DNA of 64,000 nucleotides from an uncultured Candidatus Saccharibacteria bacterium (GTDB lineage Bacteria > Patescibacteriota > Saccharimonadia > Saccharimonadales > Saccharimonadaceae). The translations under genes were made by a program, and so were the position numbers. The stretch is from contig CAMYXA010000002.1 in the NCBI GenBank assembly GCA_947302975.1, positions 26,627-90,626 of the forward strand. The letters run 5' to 3'. Below the pieces are notes generated by a model. The model had not been told where the DNA came from and did no database searches. It saw only the letters and a list, made by a program, of their open reading frames with translations. This document shows, in pieces, positions 21,444 to 31,614 of the stretch (the stretch's first letter is position 1; each line of letters opens with the position of its first letter).

Positions 21444-23399
21444 ATGAATGCAAACGAAATCCGACAAAAATTCTTAGATTTTCAAGTTAAACGTGGTCAC
21501 AAAGTCATCGCGCCAGCCCCACTTGTGCTCGAAAATGACCCAACCACCCTTTTCACCGGCTCAGGCATGCAGCCATTATTGCCATATCTTCTCGGAAAAC
21601 CACACAAAGACGGCACCCGTCTAACCGACTCCCAACCATCCCTTCGTTTGCAGGATATTGAGGATGTCGGCGACCCGCGCCACACTACGGTCTTCGAGAT
21701 GCTTGGCAACTGGTCTCTCGGCGATTATTTCAAGGAAGAACAAATTCGTAGCTTCTTTGAGTTTCTAACCAAAGAAGTTGGCTTGAATCCAGAAAAAATC
21801 TACGTCACCTGTTTCATTGGCGACGAAAAATACGGCATTCCAAAAGACGAGGAAGCCGCCCGCATCTGGCAAGAAGTCTTCAAAGAAGCTGGTATCGACG
21901 CCAAAATTGCCGAGATCGGCTCCGCTGAAAACGGCGACAAGCGTGGCATCAAACCAGGCGAACACATTTTCTTCTACGACGATCACGAGAACTGGTGGAG
22001 CCGCGGCGGTGGCATCGAAACCACCCCAATTGGCGACCCATGTGGCCCAGATTCCGAAGTTTTCTACGATTTTGGTGACGACAAACAAGATGTCGAAAAA
22101 TACGGCCTCGCCCACCCAGCTTCCGATGGCGCTCGCTTCATGGAAATCGGCAACCAAGTCTTTATGCAATATCGCCGCAAAGAAGACGGCACCTTCGAAG
22201 AACTCGAAAAGAAAAACGTCGACTTTGGTGGCGGTCTTGAACGTATCGCGGCCGCTGCAATCGACAGCTTCGATGTCTTCAAAGGCTCATTACTCAAGCC
22301 AATCATCGACAAACTCGAAGAAATCTCCGGCAAAGATTACGAATCCAACACCAGCGACATGCGCATTATCGCCGACCACATTCGTGGCGCCTACCTTCTT
22401 TCCGCCCAAGGCTTGAAACCAAGCAACAAGCAACAAGGCTACGCTCTTCGCCGCCTCATCCGCCGCGCTATCTTAAAGGCCCTTGATCTCGGCATTGCCC
22501 AAAACTTCATTAGCGAAGTTATTCCAGTTGTTGCTAAGAATTACGAATCACTTTCTGACGAAATCTTAACCACCCGCGAAGAAGCTATCGTCACTCTCGA
22601 AAAAGAGGAAAAAGTCTTCCGCGAAACCCTCTCAAAAGGTCTTCGCGAAATGCACAAAATGGTCGCGAAAGATGCCGACGGCGTCCTCACCGGCACCGAC
22701 CTCTTCAAACTCCAAGACACCTATGGCTTCCCATTTGAAATCTCCGTCGAGGAAGCTTTCCACCAGAACATTCCACTTTCAAAAGACTATCAAAAAGAAT
22801 TCGAAGAAGCCTTGAAGGAACAACGCGAACGCTCCCAAACTGCCTCAAAAGGTATGTTCAAGGGCGGCCTCGAAGATCATGGCGAAACCACCACTAAATA
22901 TCACACCGCGACCCACCTCACCCTCGCCGCACTTCAAAAACACGTCGACGAAAACATCGGTCAACGCGGCTCCAACATCACCGCCGACCGCATGCGCTTT
23001 GACTTCAACTGCGACCACAAATTGACCGACGAAGAAAAGAAAGCCGTCGAAGACCAAGTTAACGAATGGATCTCAAAAGATCTCAAAGTCGTTTTCGACG
23101 AATACGACAAAGAATATGCCAAAAACGTTTTGAAAGCTCACGGTCAATTCTGGGAAAAATATGGCGACATCGTCAAAGTCTATACCATCGCTCCGGCCAA
23201 ATATTTCGAAGAACACAAATATGAAGGCGGCAAAGCCGAAAACCCACTCGAAGCCCGCTCTTCCGAAGACGCTCCAGTCTCCGTCGAAATCTGCGGTGGC
23301 CCACACGTCGAGCACACCGGCCTCATTGGCCACTTCAAACTCGTGAAGGAAGAAGCTTCCTCCGCCGGTGTTCGCCGCATCAAAGGCGTTATAGAATAG
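21444..23399 (+). CDS. alaS: Alanyl-tRNA synthetase (short form ending at the editing domain)
   Basis: DPTTLFTGSGMQP, FEMLGNWS, GGGLER, HTATHL, EICGGPHV, GVRRI motifs. Confidence 0.97.
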   Translation: MNANEIRQKFLDFQVKRGHKVIAPAPLVLENDPTTLFTGSGMQPLLPYLLGKPHKDGTRLTDSQPSLRLQDIEDVGDPRHTTVFEMLGNWSLGDYFKEEQIRSFFEFLTKEVGLNPEKIYVTCFIGDEKYGIPKDEEAARIWQEVFKEAGIDAKIAEIGSAENGDKRGIKPGEHIFFYDDHENWWSRGGGIETTPIGDPCGPDSEVFYDFGDDKQDVEKYGLAHPASDGARFMEIGNQVFMQYRRKEDGTFEELEKKNVDFGGGLERIAAAAIDSFDVFKGSLLKPIIDKLEEISGKDYESNTSDMRIIADHIRGAYLLSAQGLKPSNKQQGYALRRLIRRAILKALDLGIAQNFISEVIPVVAKNYESLSDEILTTREEAIVTLEKEEKVFRETLSKGLREMHKMVAKDADGVLTGTDLFKLQDTYGFPFEISVEEAFHQNIPLSKDYQKEFEEALKEQRERSQTASKGMFKGGLEDHGETTTKYHTATHLTLAALQKHVDENIGQRGSNITADRMRFDFNCDHKLTDEEKKAVEDQVNEWISKDLKVVFDEYDKEYAKNVLKAHGQFWEKYGDIVKVYTIAPAKYFEEHKYEGGKAENPLEARSSEDAPVSVEICGGPHVEHTGLIGHFKLVKEEASSAGVRRIKGVIE

Positions 23400-23418
23400 T
23401 TTGTGCTATAATGTAAGC

Positions 23419-24636
23419 ATGAACACTATTCTGGCGCTAGATATTGGAACTGAATACGTAAAAGCTGTAATCGCGAAAGCCGACAAAAAAGGCTCGCTCG
23501 AGGTAATTGGCGTTGGTCGTGCCAAGCAGGCCGAAGCCAACATGTTTTCTGGTGCCATTGCCGATATTCCTGCCGTTGTCTCTACCTGTGAAAAGGCCCT
23601 TCTTGATGCTGAAGAGGAAGCTGGCGAGACCGCCAAGACCACCGTCGTTGGTATTGCTGGCGAGCTAATCAAGGGAACCACTACCACCGTCCGCTATCAT
23701 CGCGAAAACGCCAACAAACCGATCACTGATGATGAAATGAATATCATCATCAAAAAGGTCCAAGAAAAAGCTGGCGAAGCTGCCAAAAAGTCTGTCGCGC
23801 TCGAAACCGGCAACAAAAACGTCGAAATCCGTTTGATTAATTCCGCCATCGTGTCACTAACAATCGATGGCTACAAGATCTCAAACCCAATCGGCTTCAA
23901 AGGCTCCGACGTCGTCATCCAATTCTACACCGCCTTCGCGCCACTTATCCACGTTTCGGCCATCGAAAAAGTCTGCGCCGAACTCAACCTCGAACTTCTC
24001 ACCGTTGCCGTCGAACCATTCGCCGTCTGCCGCGCCTGCCTCGGTGACAATCTCGACTCTAATTTCTCTGGCATCGTCATGGACATTGGTGGCGGAACCA
24101 CCGATATCGCCGTTATCGACGATGGTGGCGTTGATGGCACCAAAATGTTCTCCATCGGCGGCCGCAGCTTCACACACCAAATCGCCAAAGGCCTAGGCGT
24201 TGATTTCGACACCGCCGAAGAATATAAAACCGATCTCGAAAACCTCGACGAACCTCTAAAGAAAAAAGTCGAAGCCGCCATCTCTAAAAACATCAAAGTT
24301 TGGATTTCCGGCATCGAAGTTGCGCTCGAAGATTTCAACATTGTCGAAGTCTTGCCGAGAAACATCTTGCTCTGTGGTGGTGGCGCCAGCCTCTCCACTC
24401 TCCAAGAATCCCTCGCTGTCTCCGACTGGTATAAAGCCTTGCCGTTCGCACGCCGCCCAATCATCAATATTATCGACGTCAACACACTTCCAGACATTCT
24501 CTACAAGACCAAAACCACCATCGATCATTCCTACGCCACCGCCCTCGGACTTCTTCGCGTCGGCGTAGATACTTTGGCCGGCTGCCCAGAAGAAGAAGGC
24601 TTGAAAGCCAAACTCTCCAAACTTTTGCAAAACTAA
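23419..24636 (+). CDS. ftsA: FtsA-like actin-fold ATPase
   Basis: LALDIGTEYVK, VMDIGGGTTD, LLCGGGA motifs; start reassigned to 23419; no adjacent ftsZ. Confidence 0.7.
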   Translation: MNTILALDIGTEYVKAVIAKADKKGSLEVIGVGRAKQAEANMFSGAIADIPAVVSTCEKALLDAEEEAGETAKTTVVGIAGELIKGTTTTVRYHRENANKPITDDEMNIIIKKVQEKAGEAAKKSVALETGNKNVEIRLINSAIVSLTIDGYKISNPIGFKGSDVVIQFYTAFAPLIHVSAIEKVCAELNLELLTVAVEPFAVCRACLGDNLDSNFSGIVMDIGGGTTDIAVIDDGGVDGTKMFSIGGRSFTHQIAKGLGVDFDTAEEYKTDLENLDEPLKKKVEAAISKNIKVWISGIEVALEDFNIVEVLPRNILLCGGGASLSTLQESLAVSDWYKALPFARRPIINIIDVNTLPDILYKTKTTIDHSYATALGLLRVGVDTLAGCPEEEGLKAKLSKLLQN

Positions 24637-25831: not shown

Positions 25832-27165
25832 ATTGTTCCTCCGTTATTTTGTTGATATTGCTGGGTTACGATTTGTGGTTGCGGCGCAGGCTGTGGGGCT
25901 GGCTGTTGCACCATCTGTGCGGCAGCCTGAATGGTCGGCGCCGGGGCTGGCTGCTGATTCATCTGTGGGGCAAATTGTTTCTGATTATTGATAATCGCGA
26001 CGCGTTTTTGATATTCTTCAGAACTTAGGCGCGGCAAGGAAACAAAGAAGGTCGACCCTTCACCAAATCCAGACTCAACCCAAATTCTTCCGCCGATCGC
26101 CTCGACGCGTTGTTTAACGAGGTAAAGCCCAAGGCCGGTCCCGCCAATTTCGCGAGTGTCCGAATTGTCAGCGCGATAAAACTTCTGGAAAATATGCTGA
26201 ATATCATCAGCCGAAATACCGATGCCAGTATCCGTAACATTAATAAGCACTCGGTCGCCATCGCCACGCACATTCACCCAAACCGAACCACCGGCCGGAG
26301 TATATTTCATGGCGTTATCGAGGAGATTATCCATAATTTCTTGCAAGAAATGAATATCAACATAGCCATAAACCACCTGGTCGAGCTTCACGCCGGAGCC
26401 GTCGCTCATACTATTAGACGAACCAAAAGTATAACTAATTTTTAGATCAGGGAACTGACCATAAAACGTATCGGCCATCTGGCGAACAGTCGAGACCATT
26501 TCCACTGGCACCATTTCCGGACGAATGCGTCCATCATCGAGTTTTGTCACATCAAGAAGATCCTGGAACAATTTTCCAAGGTGTTTGGAAGCGGTGTGGG
26601 CAGCCGTGAGATAGCCTTGCGCACGTGCATCAATCGTTGCTGTTTGCGGATTCAGAGCTAGGGAAAGATACCCCTCGATCGAGGCCACTGGAGTTCGCAT
26701 TTCGTGCGAGGCCGTGGAAATAAACTCCGTCTGCGCGCCTTCTTCTTCGAGCTCCTTTGCGATATTTCTGAGCGTCACAATCTTATCGCCAGCCCCGCCT
26801 TCAGCGTTAATCACAGACACCGAAACCGGCACACGCTTATTCGTATTTCCAACAATCAAACTACCACGGAAAGAATCCACGGTCTCCCCGCTCGCCAAAG
26901 CAAGAACTAGAGGATTTTCTTGGTCGGAAAGCTCACGTCCTTCCTTTGACTCCAAGCGAAAAACTGAACGAAGATCGAGCCCCACCGCAGAGAGCATTGG
27001 GTTAAAATCAATCATGCGAAGCGCCGCAGGATTCACGAAACGGATGATCCCGGAGCGATCAAGAATCACGACACCGTCATTAATCGATTTCAGCGCAATT
27101 TCAGCCAGTTCAAAATTATTGCCATTAGCAGCCACAGAATTATTGTTGCGCTTAAAAAGACTCAT
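25828..27165 (-). CDS. Soluble PAS-domain sensor histidine kinase with Gln/Pro-rich tail
   Basis: H-box SHEMRTP, N-box NLLDNAMKY, G1 DTGIGI, F-box FQKFYR, G2 GTGLGL; no clear TM. Confidence 0.92.
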   Translation of the reverse strand: MSLFKRNNNSVAANGNNFELAEIALKSINDGVVILDRSGIIRFVNPAALRMIDFNPMLSAVGLDLRSVFRLESKEGRELSDQENPLVLALASGETVDSFRGSLIVGNTNKRVPVSVSVINAEGGAGDKIVTLRNIAKELEEEGAQTEFISTASHEMRTPVASIEGYLSLALNPQTATIDARAQGYLTAAHTASKHLGKLFQDLLDVTKLDDGRIRPEMVPVEMVSTVRQMADTFYGQFPDLKISYTFGSSNSMSDGSGVKLDQVVYGYVDIHFLQEIMDNLLDNAMKYTPAGGSVWVNVRGDGDRVLINVTDTGIGISADDIQHIFQKFYRADNSDTREIGGTGLGLYLVKQRVEAIGGRIWVESGFGEGSTFFVSLPRLSSEEYQKRVAIINNQKQFAPQMNQQPAPAPTIQAAAQMVQQPAPQPAPQPQIVTQQYQQNNGGTI

Positions 27166-27212
27166 CCATTATATTTTAACACAAGCTCTATAAAATGTGA
27201 TATATTTTGAAT

Positions 27213-28928
27213 ATGAATAAAGACGTCATTTATATTGAGCCAGAAGACGATATTACAGATATCATCTCAAAGCTCGAAACTGCGAAAGAAAAAATCGTCG
27301 CCCTTGTTCCACCAAAGAAGAGTACAGTCCTAAGGAGCGCCGTCAATATCAAACTAATTTCCAAAGCTGGCGCAAATGCTAGCAAAAACATCGTTCTCGT
27401 GACGACTGATCCTTCGATCGTGAAGCTTGCTGCAAGCATCAAGATTCCTGTGACCAAAAATCTTCAGTCCGCCCCATCCATCCCAACCGAAGACGACATC
27501 AAAGAAGAAGTAATCGAAGAAGAAATTACCGAAGACGCCATCAGCGACAAAGTCGAAGGCAAAGACGAAAAAGTCGAAGAAGAAGACAAGACTGAGGAAG
27601 AAGAAAAAGCTGAGGAAGTCGCCAAAGAAATCGAAAAAGAAGAAGAAAAAGACGACGAAAAACCAGCTAAGCCTGAAAAAGCTCCAAAAGAGAAGAAAGA
27701 AAAGGCAGCTCCAAAGAATCCAGTTCTTGCTTGGATTGTTAGCAACAAAAAATGGGTCGCTATCGGCAGCTCCGCTCTTGGCGTGCTCATTCTTTTCCTC
27801 GTCTGGGCATTCGTTATTGCTCCAGCCGTCAAAATCAACGTCGCAGTTCGTACCAACACCAACAACTTCTCCGAAATGATTTCATTCACTAACGACCAGA
27901 CCAAAGAAGACGTCGAGGCTGGCGTATTCTATCTTGAAGAAATCAAAACCGAGCAAAAGCAAAAAGCCGAATTCACCGCCACCGGAACCAAAAACGTCGG
28001 CGAAAAAGCCAAAGGCCAAATCACCATCATCGGCATGCTGAGAGAAAACGACATCCATATCAATTCTGGAACCGTTTTAAAGCACAACGATCTAGTTTAT
28101 TACACGACCGAAGATGTCGCGCTTTTGGCTAATGAATCAACCCCTTGCGAAAACAAGGATCAAACATTTGATCTCATCAAAAACGGTTGCAAGAAATCCG
28201 CCAAAATCGGTATTGTTGCGGCCGAACCAGGCGAAAAATACAACATTGAAGAAGGTGCTGGCAACTGGGTCATTAGCGCCAATGTTTCTGCTTACACCGA
28301 AACCGGAGTCACCGGTGGCACCGACAAAAACGTCATCGTCGTAACCGATGAAAACGTTGATGTTGCAAGAGGCAAAATCGCTAGCGGCAACGCTGAAAAT
28401 CTCGAAGACACCAAGAACGCTTTGAAAGAGCAAGCTGGCGACCGTATTCTCATCGAATCCAGCTTCAAACAAGAAATGGGCGAACCAGAAGTTAGCCCGA
28501 AGGTTGGCGAAGAAGTCCCGTCCGACACCATCCCATCCATCACCTTGACCACCACAACTTCCTACTTCGCTATCGACAAAACCAAGGTTGAAGAATTCAT
28601 CACCAGCAAAGCCAAAATCCCAGAAGATCAAAAGATCTATGCCATCAACAACCCATTTATCGAAAGTTTCATGGCAACCGATACCGCCATCACCGGCAAA
28701 ATCAAAACCTCATATTCAACCGGTTCCAAGCTTACCGAAAATGACATTCTCGAAATGGTCAAAGGCAAAGGCATTGGCGACGTTCAGCACACTTTGAAAT
28801 CCGTCAGCGGGGTCAGCAAAGTTTCCATCAACCCATCTTATCCATGGGTCAATACCGTCCCAACCGATAGCGGCAGAATCACTATCGAACTAACAATTGA
28901 AGAAACAACCTCCCAAAACAAGGAATAA
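27213..28928 (+). CDS. Conserved bitopic membrane protein with an acidic linker; ectodomain possibly baseplate-J-like
   Basis: N-terminal cytoplasmic domain, E/K-rich linker, one TM, ectodomain with ATG..NVG..A.G and PGEKYNI motifs recalled from baseplate-J-like annotations. Confidence 0.5.
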   Translation: MNKDVIYIEPEDDITDIISKLETAKEKIVALVPPKKSTVLRSAVNIKLISKAGANASKNIVLVTTDPSIVKLAASIKIPVTKNLQSAPSIPTEDDIKEEVIEEEITEDAISDKVEGKDEKVEEEDKTEEEEKAEEVAKEIEKEEEKDDEKPAKPEKAPKEKKEKAAPKNPVLAWIVSNKKWVAIGSSALGVLILFLVWAFVIAPAVKINVAVRTNTNNFSEMISFTNDQTKEDVEAGVFYLEEIKTEQKQKAEFTATGTKNVGEKAKGQITIIGMLRENDIHINSGTVLKHNDLVYYTTEDVALLANESTPCENKDQTFDLIKNGCKKSAKIGIVAAEPGEKYNIEEGAGNWVISANVSAYTETGVTGGTDKNVIVVTDENVDVARGKIASGNAENLEDTKNALKEQAGDRILIESSFKQEMGEPEVSPKVGEEVPSDTIPSITLTTTTSYFAIDKTKVEEFITSKAKIPEDQKIYAINNPFIESFMATDTAITGKIKTSYSTGSKLTENDILEMVKGKGIGDVQHTLKSVSGVSKVSINPSYPWVNTVPTDSGRITIELTIEETTSQNKE

Positions 28929-28930
28929 CT

Positions 28931-30538
28931 ATGAAAATCATCGGACTTGATGTCGGAGAGAAACGTATTGGCGTCGCTCGTGCCGACCTATCAACTAAAA
29001 TTGCTGTCCCAGTAGGCTATATCGAAGTCGACGGCACCGAGTGGGAAAAACTTAAAAAACTAGCATTCTTAAACAGCACCAAGTTCTTCGTGCTTGGCCG
29101 TCCACGCAGCAACGAGGGAAATGAAACCAAACAAACCCTCTTTGTGATGAATTTCGCCAAGAAACTCACCGAAGTCATCCCGGACATCAAAATCCGCTAC
29201 CAAGATGAATCTTTGACTTCTGTCGAAGCCGAAACCAGGCTGAAAGCCAGCAAAAAGGCATACGAAAAGGGCGACATCGACGCCGAAGCCGCATCCATCA
29301 TCTTACAAGATTTCATTGAGTCCTTCCGCGAACCAACCCAGACGACCGTCACCCCTGAGTCAACTAATCTCGTCAAGAAACAGGTAAAAAAAACTATCTT
29401 GAACGCTAAAATCGCGGCCGAAAAACCAAAGAAAATCGTTAAAATCGCCACCGACACCCCTCAAAAAATCATCAAAAAAGCTCGCATGAAGAAAATTCTC
29501 ACCCCAATTATTATCGTGTTGATCCTCGGCCTACTCGCCGCGGGCTCCGTCTTTTGGTATTTTGAGTCACTCTCCCCAGTTATCAAAAACTGCGAAGACA
29601 ACCGCTGCCCAGATACTGAATTCGTCGTTAGAGAAGGCGATTCCATCGACCAAATCGCCGAAAGACTCGACGAAATGGACCTAATCAGAAGCTCTTTCTT
29701 CTTCAAAATCAACCTAAAGCTCAACCACCCAGACGCATCCCTAAAGACTGGTATCTATACCCTGGATAAAGGCATGTCCGCCGATGAAATCGCTGGAAAA
29801 CTTGCCGAAGGCTCGATCGACCCGAACGTCTTCTCGTTTACCATTCTTCCAGGCGAAACCATCTTTGATATCAAGAAGAAACTTATCAACTTCGGATATC
29901 GCACCGAAGAAATCGACGAAGCGCTCTACAAAAACTACGATTTTGAGGTTTTGAAAGATCGCCCAGCCGGCAGCTCGCTCGAAGGCTATCTCTTTGGCGA
30001 AACCCACGAATTCTACAACTCTGCCAGCGTATCAGAGATTTTCGAAGTCTTCCTTAAAAATTTTGACACCATCGCAAAAGACAATGATCTTGCCGGACAA
30101 TTTGCGAAGAAAGGCCTCAATCTCCATCAGGGAATTACCCTCGCTTCAATCGTCCAAAAAGAGGCTCATTCTGCCGACCAACCAACTGTCGCCCAGGTCT
30201 TTCTTTCTCGTCTCTCCGCCGGTTACCCACTCGGTAGCGACGTAACCGTCTCCTACGCACTTGACGTCATCGACCCAGACAGAAAAACCTACAACAACAA
30301 TGCCGACGCTCTGAACGTCGATTCTTGCTACAACACGCGAAAAAATGCCGGCCTGCCATGCGGCCCAATCTCAAATCCAAGCCTTAATGCACTTCTTGCC
30401 GTCGCTAACCCAACAGATACCGCTTATTTCTATTTCTTGACAGGGGACGACGGGTCGATGTATTATAGTTATACAGAGGACGAGCACAACCAGAAAGCCC
30501 GCGACTACTGCCAAGTCCTTTGTAATATTTCATTATGA
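28931..30538 (+). CDS. mltG: YqgF/RuvX nuclease fused to MltG endolytic transglycosylase
   Basis: N-terminal GLDVGEKRIGVA, QDESLTS, IDAEAASIILQ; TM; C-terminal LEGYLF, ASIVQKE, LGSDVTV, YNT..GLPCGPISNP. Confidence 0.88.
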   Translation: MKIIGLDVGEKRIGVARADLSTKIAVPVGYIEVDGTEWEKLKKLAFLNSTKFFVLGRPRSNEGNETKQTLFVMNFAKKLTEVIPDIKIRYQDESLTSVEAETRLKASKKAYEKGDIDAEAASIILQDFIESFREPTQTTVTPESTNLVKKQVKKTILNAKIAAEKPKKIVKIATDTPQKIIKKARMKKILTPIIIVLILGLLAAGSVFWYFESLSPVIKNCEDNRCPDTEFVVREGDSIDQIAERLDEMDLIRSSFFFKINLKLNHPDASLKTGIYTLDKGMSADEIAGKLAEGSIDPNVFSFTILPGETIFDIKKKLINFGYRTEEIDEALYKNYDFEVLKDRPAGSSLEGYLFGETHEFYNSASVSEIFEVFLKNFDTIAKDNDLAGQFAKKGLNLHQGITLASIVQKEAHSADQPTVAQVFLSRLSAGYPLGSDVTVSYALDVIDPDRKTYNNNADALNVDSCYNTRKNAGLPCGPISNPSLNALLAVANPTDTAYFYFLTGDDGSMYYSYTEDEHNQKARDYCQVLCNISL

Positions 30539-31614
30539 AAAAGAAAATCGATATTGATAAGCTAAAAAGATTCAGCCTCTACTTTTTAGCAGGCGCCGGA
30601 ATCTTGACGTTGGTTTTTGTCGGCACACTCGACAAAAACAGCTCCAGCACCACCATTAGCCTTAGTGCTTTTGATGACTCCGGATTCGGCATCTCTTCTG
30701 ACCAAGTTTCAGAGGCGTATCTTGTTGCCGATTTGTCCAGTGCCCTAAATCTACCTAGCGCCGAGGATGCCGCTTACCACTATGCCGCCACCAGCAGCCT
30801 TTACAGCATCGGCCAAACCTCAGAGGGTAAGATCGAAAAGGGCTATACCATCGATACCTCAAAATTCTCTCGTGGCGTCACGACCTACGTTGTTAACGCC
30901 GGCGAGAGCATGGAATCTATCGCCGCCAAATTCGGCCTCACCACCGACCAAATTCGCTGGTCTAACGGCCTCAAAAACACTAATCTTAGCGCCGGCACCA
31001 CTCTTTACCTCACCAAGAACGTCTCCGGTATCGTCTATACAGTTAAATCCGGCGATACTCTCGAGGGAATCGCCTCAAAATATGGTTCAACCGCCGAAAA
31101 AATTCGCCATTTGAACGATATCGAAGTGACCGGTATTTCCGAAGGTATGAAGATTGCTATCGAGGGCGGCTCACTTCCAACAACCGAACGCCCAGAATAC
31201 GTCCCACCTCGCCCAGTCTATACCTACAGCACCTACGGTAACACCGGTACCCGTATTAATATCTCCATCGTCATCGCAAACGGCTTCGGTTCATACGGTG
31301 GCTACGGATGGGGTCAATGTACCAGCTGGGCTTGGTTCAACCGCCAAGATCTCCCAACAAACCTCGGCAACGCCAGCTCCTGGGCCTATAACGCCGCTGC
31401 AGCCGGATTCCCAGTCGACCACAACCCTCAGCCCGGAGACATCTTCCAGCATGGTGGTGGTTGGTATGGTCACGTTGGTTATGTTGAATCTAAAAATGAT
31501 GACGGTTCAATCACCATCACTGAAGCTAACTACAACTACTACGCCGGTCGTGTCACCCGCGCAACCATCCCAGCCAACGTCGTTCCGTCCTTGAATTACA
31601 TCCATAGACGATAA
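30535..31614 (+). CDS. LysM x2 + CHAP peptidoglycan hydrolase
   Basis: YVVNAGESMESIA and YTVKSGDTLEGIA LysM repeats; GQCTSWA, LGNASSW, YGHVGYVE, ITEANY CHAP motifs. Confidence 0.9.
   Translation: MKKKIDIDKLKRFSLYFLAGAGILTLVFVGTLDKNSSSTTISLSAFDDSGFGISSDQVSEAYLVADLSSALNLPSAEDAAYHYAATSSLYSIGQTSEGKIEKGYTIDTSKFSRGVTTYVVNAGESMESIAAKFGLTTDQIRWSNGLKNTNLSAGTTLYLTKNVSGIVYTVKSGDTLEGIASKYGSTAEKIRHLNDIEVTGISEGMKIAIEGGSLPTTERPEYVPPRPVYTYSTYGNTGTRINISIVIANGFGSYGGYGWGQCTSWAWFNRQDLPTNLGNASSWAYNAAAAGFPVDHNPQPGDIFQHGGGWYGHVGYVESKNDDGSITITEANYNYYAGRVTRATIPANVVPSLNYIHRR

Follow-up and report, generated by a model that had tools for sequence, protein, structure and literature searches.

We analysed a window of 64,000 nucleotides (positions 26,627 to 90,626 of contig CAMYXA010000002.1, forward strand) from an uncultured Candidatus Saccharibacteria bacterium, and focused on an open reading frame (ORF) in which ruvX, the gene of the RuvX/YqgF nuclease, is joined to mltG, the gene of the endolytic transglycosylase MltG. 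The features of this locus are listed in Table 1. The preliminary description of this DNA had placed an intact YqgF/RuvX domain, a Lys-rich linker, a transmembrane (TM) helix and an MltG domain with the xKE catalytic Glu in one frame, and matches to Pfam and NCBIfam profiles together with hydropathy bore out each of these parts. The single frame holds, in this order, the nuclease, the linker, the TM helix and MltG, of which the nuclease is predicted to be cytoplasmic and MltG extracytoplasmic. The fused ORF was the sole RuvX match and also the sole YceG match of the genome (673 kb in 18 contigs, 91% complete). Two proteins encoded on other contigs, P0001 and P0002, were 99% and 91% identical to it. 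An AlphaFold2 (AF2) model built with 53 fused homologues as input had a mean predicted local distance difference test (pLDDT) score of 88.2 and was confident for both domains. For the contacts between the domains, AF2 gave no confident arrangement, with a predicted template modelling (pTM) score of 0.58 and a disordered linker.

Table 1. Features of the ruvX::mltG locus in the window, with two comparison loci in other genomes.
Feature	Position	Strand	Basis or remark
ruvX::mltG fused ORF	28931..30538	+	ATG start, 535 aa, TGA stop; ORF listing
RuvX/YqgF nuclease domain, residues 1-130	28931..29320	+	Pfam, NCBIfam, sequence alignment to proteins of known structure, Foldseek
Lys-rich disordered linker, residues 131-188	29321..29494	+	charge count, pLDDT, low conservation
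Internal in-frame ATG, codon 186	29486..29488	+	'MKKILTP'
Predicted single TM helix, residues 189-211	29495..29563	+	hydropathy, AF2 helix
MltG/YceG domain, residues 231-524	29621..30502	+	Pfam, NCBIfam, Foldseek
Shine-Dalgarno (SD)-like AGGA, 6 nt 5' of the fusion ATG	28921..28924	+	inside the 3' end of the upstream gene
573-aa TM protein, no Pfam family	27207..28928	+	TAA stop 28926-28928, 2 nt before the fusion ATG
Peptidoglycan hydrolase, LysM x2 + CHAP	30535..31614	+	ATG overlaps the fusion TGA (ATGA)
alaS, then directly an FtsA/MreB/PilM-like actin-fold gene	21444-24636	+	5.5 kb upstream of the fusion
G237, out-of-frame ruvX/mltG pair	L011 630-1890	-	
G579, partial fusion	L026 1443-2913	+	

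The N-terminal half carries the marks of a complete RuvX nuclease. Residues 1-130 matched PF03652 over positions 1-133 of the 134 in the profile (E-value 3.1e-29; 102.5 bits, cut-off 29.2), and the NCBIfam model TIGR00250 for RuvX scored 73.8 bits against a cut-off of 43.25. In the AF2 model the same residues adopt an RNase-H-like fold, with pLDDT values of 86-96 across 10-residue blocks. Foldseek aligned the N-terminal part to known structures with TM-scores (by target) ranging overall from 0.68 to 0.85, among them 1nu0 (0.84), 7w89 (0.83), 1vhx (0.72) and 7ess (0.68). According to the excerpts of PMC9601230, YqgF uses three carboxylates, namely an Asp in strand 1, a Glu at the end of strand 5 and an Asp in the C-terminal helix, which are D22, E106 and D122 in DrYqgF of D. 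radiodurans. In our protein, D7 (28949-28951), E93 and D117 are invariant among 53 fused proteins and, in an alignment to 1nu0, 7ess and 1vhx, fall on the D, DE and D positions of E. coli YqgF. In the AF2 model, E93 closes strand 87-93 and D117 lies within helix 113-131. These three residues appear to occupy the places of the three YqgF carboxylates, presumably one-to-one with the D. radiodurans numbering. The profile matches, the fold and the kept carboxylates agree in describing an intact domain.

To the conservation of this half we could add that of the whole protein. In a MAFFT alignment of 145 fused proteins (fast settings), mean conservation was 0.78 for RuvX and 0.73 for the MltG core, against 0.30 with 33% gaps for the linker, and 80 positions were at least 97% conserved. 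Within RuvX, the positions at this level were D7, G9, R12, G14, D92, E93, D117 and D127. The high mean conservation and the kept residues show that RuvX is not decaying into a mere tail of MltG. RuvC (154 bits) and RuvB are also encoded in the genome, in which RecU was searched for and not found. Since RuvC and RuvB are present for Holliday junctions, a role of RuvX in the processing of RNA or pre-16S rRNA is favoured, and the RuvX half is less likely to be the main resolvase than a nuclease acting on RNA or in rRNA maturation. In line with this, the excerpts of PMC9601230 describe D. radiodurans YqgF as an RNA nuclease without resolvase activity, in an organism that has RuvC, and report that E. 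coli YqgF processes pre-16S rRNA in 70S ribosomes.

The C-terminal half is likewise a recognizable enzyme. Residues 231-524 matched PF02618 (YceG) over positions 1-274 of the 275 in the profile (E-value 1e-67; 229 bits, cut-off 32.4), and TIGR00247 (MltG) scored 187.6 bits against a cut-off of 103.4 in an alignment that begins at residue 186. The narrow E. coli-type equivalog NF007619 scored 91.2 bits, below its cut-off of 532. Judged from these profiles, the MltG half classifies as a member of the broad MltG family outside the E. coli-type equivalog. Foldseek matched the C-terminal part to the MltG structures 4iiw, 8yoa, 8yq7 and 2r1f. The xKE Glu is retained: E411 (codon 30161-30163), in the motif 'IVQKEA', is paired in alignments with the Glu of the 'iiekea' motif of Lmo1499 (4iiw) and with that of the 'iieket' motif of E. 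coli YceG (2r1f), the latter of which we take to be the catalytic E218 of E. coli MltG. This putative catalytic residue is invariant in the 53 fused proteins and at least 97% conserved in the 145, a level that was reached in MltG by S406, Q409 and D437 as well.

Departures from this MltG half were observed within the genus. A subclade of shorter fused proteins comprises those of G119, G143, G199 and G065 (L007, L008) and homologues of 442-486 aa. In this subclade the MltG match starts only at query residue 292-293, and the first LysM-like subdomain (query residues ~231-291) seems to be absent or diverged. In the MltG of G237, the TM helix is followed almost directly by 'FTFTIVPGETIFDI'.

The segment between the two domains is of a different nature. 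Residues 131-189 contain 16 Lys and Arg against 4 Asp and Glu, and in the AF2 model residues 137-186 have pLDDT values below 50 and are thus disordered. The linker has a median length of 58 aa among the 145 fused proteins, the extremes being 26 and 297 aa. At the long end, P0126, P0134, P0135 and P0136 (650-772 aa) form a fused clade with a support of 100 and have 175-297 residues of linker before the TM segment. The strongest hydrophobic segment of the whole protein is the 19-residue window from residue 189 (Kyte-Doolittle mean 2.61), and AF2 models a helix at 187-214 with a pLDDT of about 90. All 145 fused homologues have a TM segment with a score of 1.97 or more. The positive charge on the N-terminal side fits a TM helix with its N-terminus inside and its C-terminus outside, which is the orientation that we infer. 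As expected of MltG, a single membrane anchor was found ahead of the LysM-like and catalytic parts. Because MltG matches in unfused relatives reach back to query residues 137-190, the linker corresponds to the old cytoplasmic N-terminal tail of MltG.

The fused frame recurs far beyond this genome. Among 8000 scored candidates, 2859 homologues had an E-value of at most 1e-10, and the best 120 of these all contained both Pfam domains (120/120). Those homologues that are named carry the annotation 'endolytic transglycosylase MltG [Candidatus Saccharibacteria bacterium]'. RuvX was found in 99 of the 101 genomes sampled from the genus, and in 95 of these 99 it lay in an open frame of 439-601 aa. 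Three of the four exceptions (G250, G216 and G263) have their match less than 1 kb from a contig end, on the side where MltG is expected. We also looked for a stop codon at the junction, which would have spoken against the fusion, in Logan contigs. They came from three DNA runs (X1, X2 and X5), which belong to different studies and together cover 28700-29718. One 1252-nt contig of X2 covers 28700-29583, X1 covers 29278-29566, and X5 covers 28835-29332 and 29362-29718. These contigs cross the junction, and no insertion or deletion was reported there in any of the three runs. The X2 differences listed within the ORF numbered 18, of which 15 were synonymous, 3 were non-synonymous and none was a stop; three further differences of the X2 contig fall outside this listing.

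Public runs also gave a hint about habitat. Those that contain one third to one half of the sampled words of the gene are mostly labelled bovine gut metagenome and come from 12 studies. Since the matching runs are mostly so labelled, and contigs from other runs are 90-99% alike to the gene of the window, close relatives of this bacterium are common in the bovine gut.

How prevalent is the fusion across the candidate phyla radiation? It was found essentially in one genus and in a few scattered lineages. In a family sample of 146 genomes from 95 genera, RuvX lay in frames of 443-560 aa in 4/4 genomes of this genus, and in frames of 118-196 aa in all 141 genomes with a match from the other 94 genera. 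In a phylum sample, again of 146 genomes, 139/139 genomes outside the genus had RuvX frames of 39-222 aa. Five genomes with long MltG frames (G128, G047, G183, G130 and G699) were considered as fusions and ruled out, RuvX being encoded there in separate frames of 122-156 aa. The fusion is thus narrow in distribution, and this genus is the only large group in which it has become fixed.

The relatives also preserve the state from which such a fusion could start. Twenty-four family genomes from other genera were present in both the RuvX and the MltG listings. A comparison of their coordinates by hand placed ruvX next to mltG, on its upstream side and on the same strand, in all 24. The same gene order was seen in G018, G022, G183, G047, G128 and G130, which belong to other families. 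In G080, the ATG of mltG follows the TAA of ruvX immediately and in the same frame, and the flanking genes are as in the window. Same-frame ruvX and mltG with a single stop between them were also found in five genomes of genus g169, in G669 and in G044. Because only a single stop separates the same-frame pair in these relatives, one substitution would fuse ruvX and mltG.

Fused forms were also sought among cluster representatives. Of the 150 best ones at 50% identity, 28 had a RuvX match of more than 100 aa together with an MltG match of more than 200 aa. Pfam confirmed 13 two-domain proteins with RuvX and YceG, 12 of them of 494-772 aa and the thirteenth, P0127, of 521 aa. A FastTree phylogeny of the MltG part comprised 150 rows, of which 33 were fused and 117 were separate. 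Left out were 11 rows: 8 cluster members that were near-duplicates, P0149, which is truncated, and P0169 and P0172, in which a domain is swapped. The genus formed one clade with a support of 99, made up of 25 fused and 3 separate proteins. Overall, the tree required 9 changes of state, of which at least 5 were forced by well-supported branches. Outside the genus clade, P0150, P0151 and the P0137-P0142 group were fused. P0150 was nearest to genus g169, itself unfused, and the P0137-P0142 group was nearest to genus g17, also unfused. In G579, a genome of another family, the C-terminal two thirds of RuvX are in frame with MltG in a frame of 483 aa and the RuvX N-terminus is out of frame; this state could be a real frameshift or an error of the metagenome-assembled genome (MAG). 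The fused forms outside the genus clade and G579 show that the fusion arises repeatedly.

A further architecture was seen in P0169 (615 aa) and P0172 (620 aa). In both, RuvX at residues 1-130 is combined with an N-terminal part of YceG (profile 1-165/173 of 275) and a C-terminal Glucosaminidase domain (PF01832). The catalytic half of MltG appears to have been replaced by another wall hydrolase with the RuvX tether kept, although a chimeric assembly is possible.

Comparison with known systems places both halves in ordinary company and sets their union apart. The RuvX half shares its hidden Markov models, its RNase-H-like fold and its three carboxylates with the stand-alone RuvX/YqgF proteins of E. 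coli (1nu0/1ovq), M. tuberculosis (7ess), B. subtilis (YrrK, 1vhx) and D. radiodurans (7w89). Those proteins are soluble and of ~130-170 aa, whereas in our case the domain forms the N-terminal part of a membrane protein of 535 aa and has no free copy in the genome. The MltG half shares the TM anchor, the LysM-like subdomain, the catalytic domain and the xKE Glu with the stand-alone MltG/YceG of E. coli (2r1f), L. monocytogenes (Lmo1499, 4iiw) and A. baumannii (8yq7/8yoa). In stand-alone MltG the cytoplasmic segment is short or disordered, whereas the tail here carries a whole folded enzyme. A further comparison is with the ruvX-mltG pairs of sister genera (for example G080, G077 and G116), which, like yrrK/yrrL of B. 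subtilis, have the same gene order. The sister-genus pairs have the flanks of the window, a TM protein upstream and a LysM-CHAP gene downstream, and their MltG tail is homologous to our linker. They consist of two ORFs, in which the stop can abut the next ATG, whereas the window has one. A YqgF-fold domain is also one module of a larger protein in Tex/Spt6 (Foldseek matches 3bzc, 2oce and Spt6 chains). However, Tex/Spt6 proteins are soluble and bind nucleic acid, their partner domains are unrelated, and neither a membrane anchor nor a wall enzyme is joined to the domain.

The full-text literature, with subscription journals outside it, yielded no mention of a RuvX-MltG fusion; we do not claim on this basis that it is unpublished. 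In the same literature nothing was found on Saccharibacteria together with MltG, and the excerpts returned for the cytoplasmic tail of MltG held nothing useful. The two proteins appeared together only in a table of PMC3814617 that lists the two B. subtilis genes. The protein combines two well-known families in a new domain architecture, which public annotation conceals under the name MltG. Because the annotation names only MltG, surveys that go by name may count this genus as lacking ruvX. The fusion is a real but modest curiosity; both enzymes are ordinary.

The single frame, the identities of the domains, the conservation of residues, the distribution and the adjacent-gene state in relatives were all observed directly. 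The reading of these data that we consider probable is a genuine and stably inherited stop-loss fusion, whose product would be a bitopic two-enzyme protein in which the two halves keep separate jobs and the union is tolerated. By this route, the stop codon of ruvX would have been lost in the ancestor of the genus, with readthrough into the mltG lying immediately downstream, and the cytoplasmic N-terminal tail of MltG would have become the disordered Lys-rich linker. RuvX/YqgF would sit in the cytoplasm on a flexible tether of ~60 residues, followed by one TM helix, and MltG would face the cell wall. Both halves probably keep their ordinary jobs, RuvX in the processing of RNA or pre-16S rRNA and MltG in the cleavage of nascent glycan strands. 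The membrane-tethered nuclease proposed in the preliminary description follows plainly from the conserved fused architecture, and we estimate that a disordered tether of ~60 residues holds RuvX within roughly 10-20 nm of the membrane. Saccharibacteria cells are reported to be very small, and a large share of the cytoplasm lies within the reach of such a tether. Since substrates can reach a membrane-tethered enzyme by diffusion in so small a cell, the fusion may be tolerated, and it may persist because reversal needs both a new stop and a new start.

Such a protein would be of interest in several respects. First, it would amount to a natural experiment: in more than 100 species, an essential-type cytoplasmic nuclease would work in permanent attachment to the membrane, and this constrains the place and the manner in which RuvX has to act. 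Second, it would give a physical link to the long-noted and unexplained ruvX-mltG neighbourhood of Gram-positive-type genomes. Third, it would provide an example of abutting genes in compact genomes fusing by a single substitution.

Several observations weigh against a tolerated stop-loss fusion. In G237 (same genus, 84% complete), ruvX (132 aa) and mltG (309 aa) are overlapping ORFs in different frames; the split reflects a secondary frameshift or else faulty assembly. Three stand-alone MltG representatives lie inside the genus clade. With G237, they mean that the fused state is not absolute. The MltG tree itself, made with FastTree, has local supports only and contains P-numbered proteins that come without taxonomy. 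From the RNA-library run X20 came a single 225-nt contig (29022-29246) and a piece of 34 nt, and this contig demonstrates neither that the gene is transcribed along its whole length nor that it yields one product. Cleavage of the linker, or internal initiation at GTG or TTG codons, is possible. As for neutrality, which we infer, the near-complete retention of the fusion in more than 100 species and its repeated appearance could equally mean an advantage.

One alternative holds that the fusion exists only in the DNA, and that a restart inside the linker, or a cut after membrane insertion, yields free RuvX and an ordinary MltG. In this species an in-frame ATG does lie 3 residues before the TM helix, behind an A-rich upstream region, and it had been suggested at the outset that this ATG could yield MltG alone. 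A Met within 12 residues upstream of the TM segment occurs in 62 of the 145 homologues, and the disordered linker would be open to proteases. However, the column of codon 186 holds Met in only 3/145 fused proteins, namely the query and two near-identical relatives. The next relatives, P0003-P0009 (63-66% identity), have no Met in the linker, and neither do 34 of the 145 fused homologues in all. Moreover, SD-like words precede 14 of the 44 long ORFs of the window, as against ~8% of random positions, and in a scan of codons 129-200 none was found before the in-frame ATG, GTG or TTG codons 157, 186, 196 and 197. Because the internal ATG is unconserved and has no SD-like motif upstream, MltG alone does not seem to be a general product, and the suggestion finds no support; a separate MltG from this start would at best be a peculiarity of this species. 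Even then, an internal start would leave RuvX on the full-length chains, since this ORF is the only ruvX. We therefore regard two separate products as unlikely.

Another alternative to a tolerated fusion is that the tether was selected, either because it places RuvX beside the wall-synthesis machinery or because RuvX regulates MltG. Such a coupling would coordinate ribosome maturation, or the state of nucleic acids, with the release of glycan strands in a cell whose division apparatus is minimal. It would account for the retention of the fusion in 95/99 genomes of the genus and for the fused forms at three or more other places of the tree (P0150, P0151 and P0137-P0142) and in G579. It also accords with the ruvX-mltG neighbourhood, which is kept across the class and is approached in B. 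subtilis, where the table of PMC3814617 has the two genes as near neighbours, and with P0169 and P0172, which keep RuvX on a TM-anchored wall hydrolase despite a different catalytic half. On the other hand, the 141 genomes of 94 sister genera and 139 further genomes from the phylum sample lack the fusion. A linker without conservation, with lengths anywhere between 26 and 297 aa, speaks against precise positioning, and the AF2 model offers no confident inter-domain arrangement. Furthermore, an abutting stop and start make repeated accidental fusion easy. On balance, selection for the tether is improbable.

More speculative still, and in our view quite doubtful, is a functional tether in which the sole RuvX, on the cytoplasmic face of MltG, would link late 16S rRNA maturation or nucleic-acid sensing to the termination of glycan strands. 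If true, one protein would match wall growth to ribosome supply in ultra-small epibionts, and convergence would account for the independent fusions and for the RuvX-TM-glucosaminidase variants. Finally, a sequencing or assembly error that removed a stop or shifted the frame in this MAG, for which the draft state of the genome (18 contigs, 91% complete) and the out-of-frame genes of G237 might speak, is effectively refuted by the long frame in 95/99 genus genomes, by 120/120 fused best homologues from many sources, by the contigs of three runs from different studies that span 28700-29718 with no indels or listed stops, and by substitutions that are mostly synonymous in the fused frame.

Around the fused gene, the window shows a tight array. 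In the 573-aa protein encoded directly upstream, an N-terminal domain is followed by an acidic low-complexity stretch rich in Glu and Lys, by a single TM helix and by a large C-terminal part, and a like protein is encoded directly upstream of ruvX in G080, G237 and G579. On the other side, the overlap of the fusion stop with the start of the hydrolase gene (ATGA) suggests translational coupling of two wall hydrolases; a LysM-CHAP gene is also found downstream in G080. The gene next after the LysM-LysM-CHAP gene is obg. The placement of alaS in the window is reminiscent of Gram-positive bacteria, in which alaS, ruvX and mltG are neighbours. In B. subtilis, yrrK (BSU27390) and yrrL (BSU27370) are near neighbours, as far as the table in PMC3814617 goes. 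LytR-CpsA-Psr and VanY genes lie downstream of the fusion.

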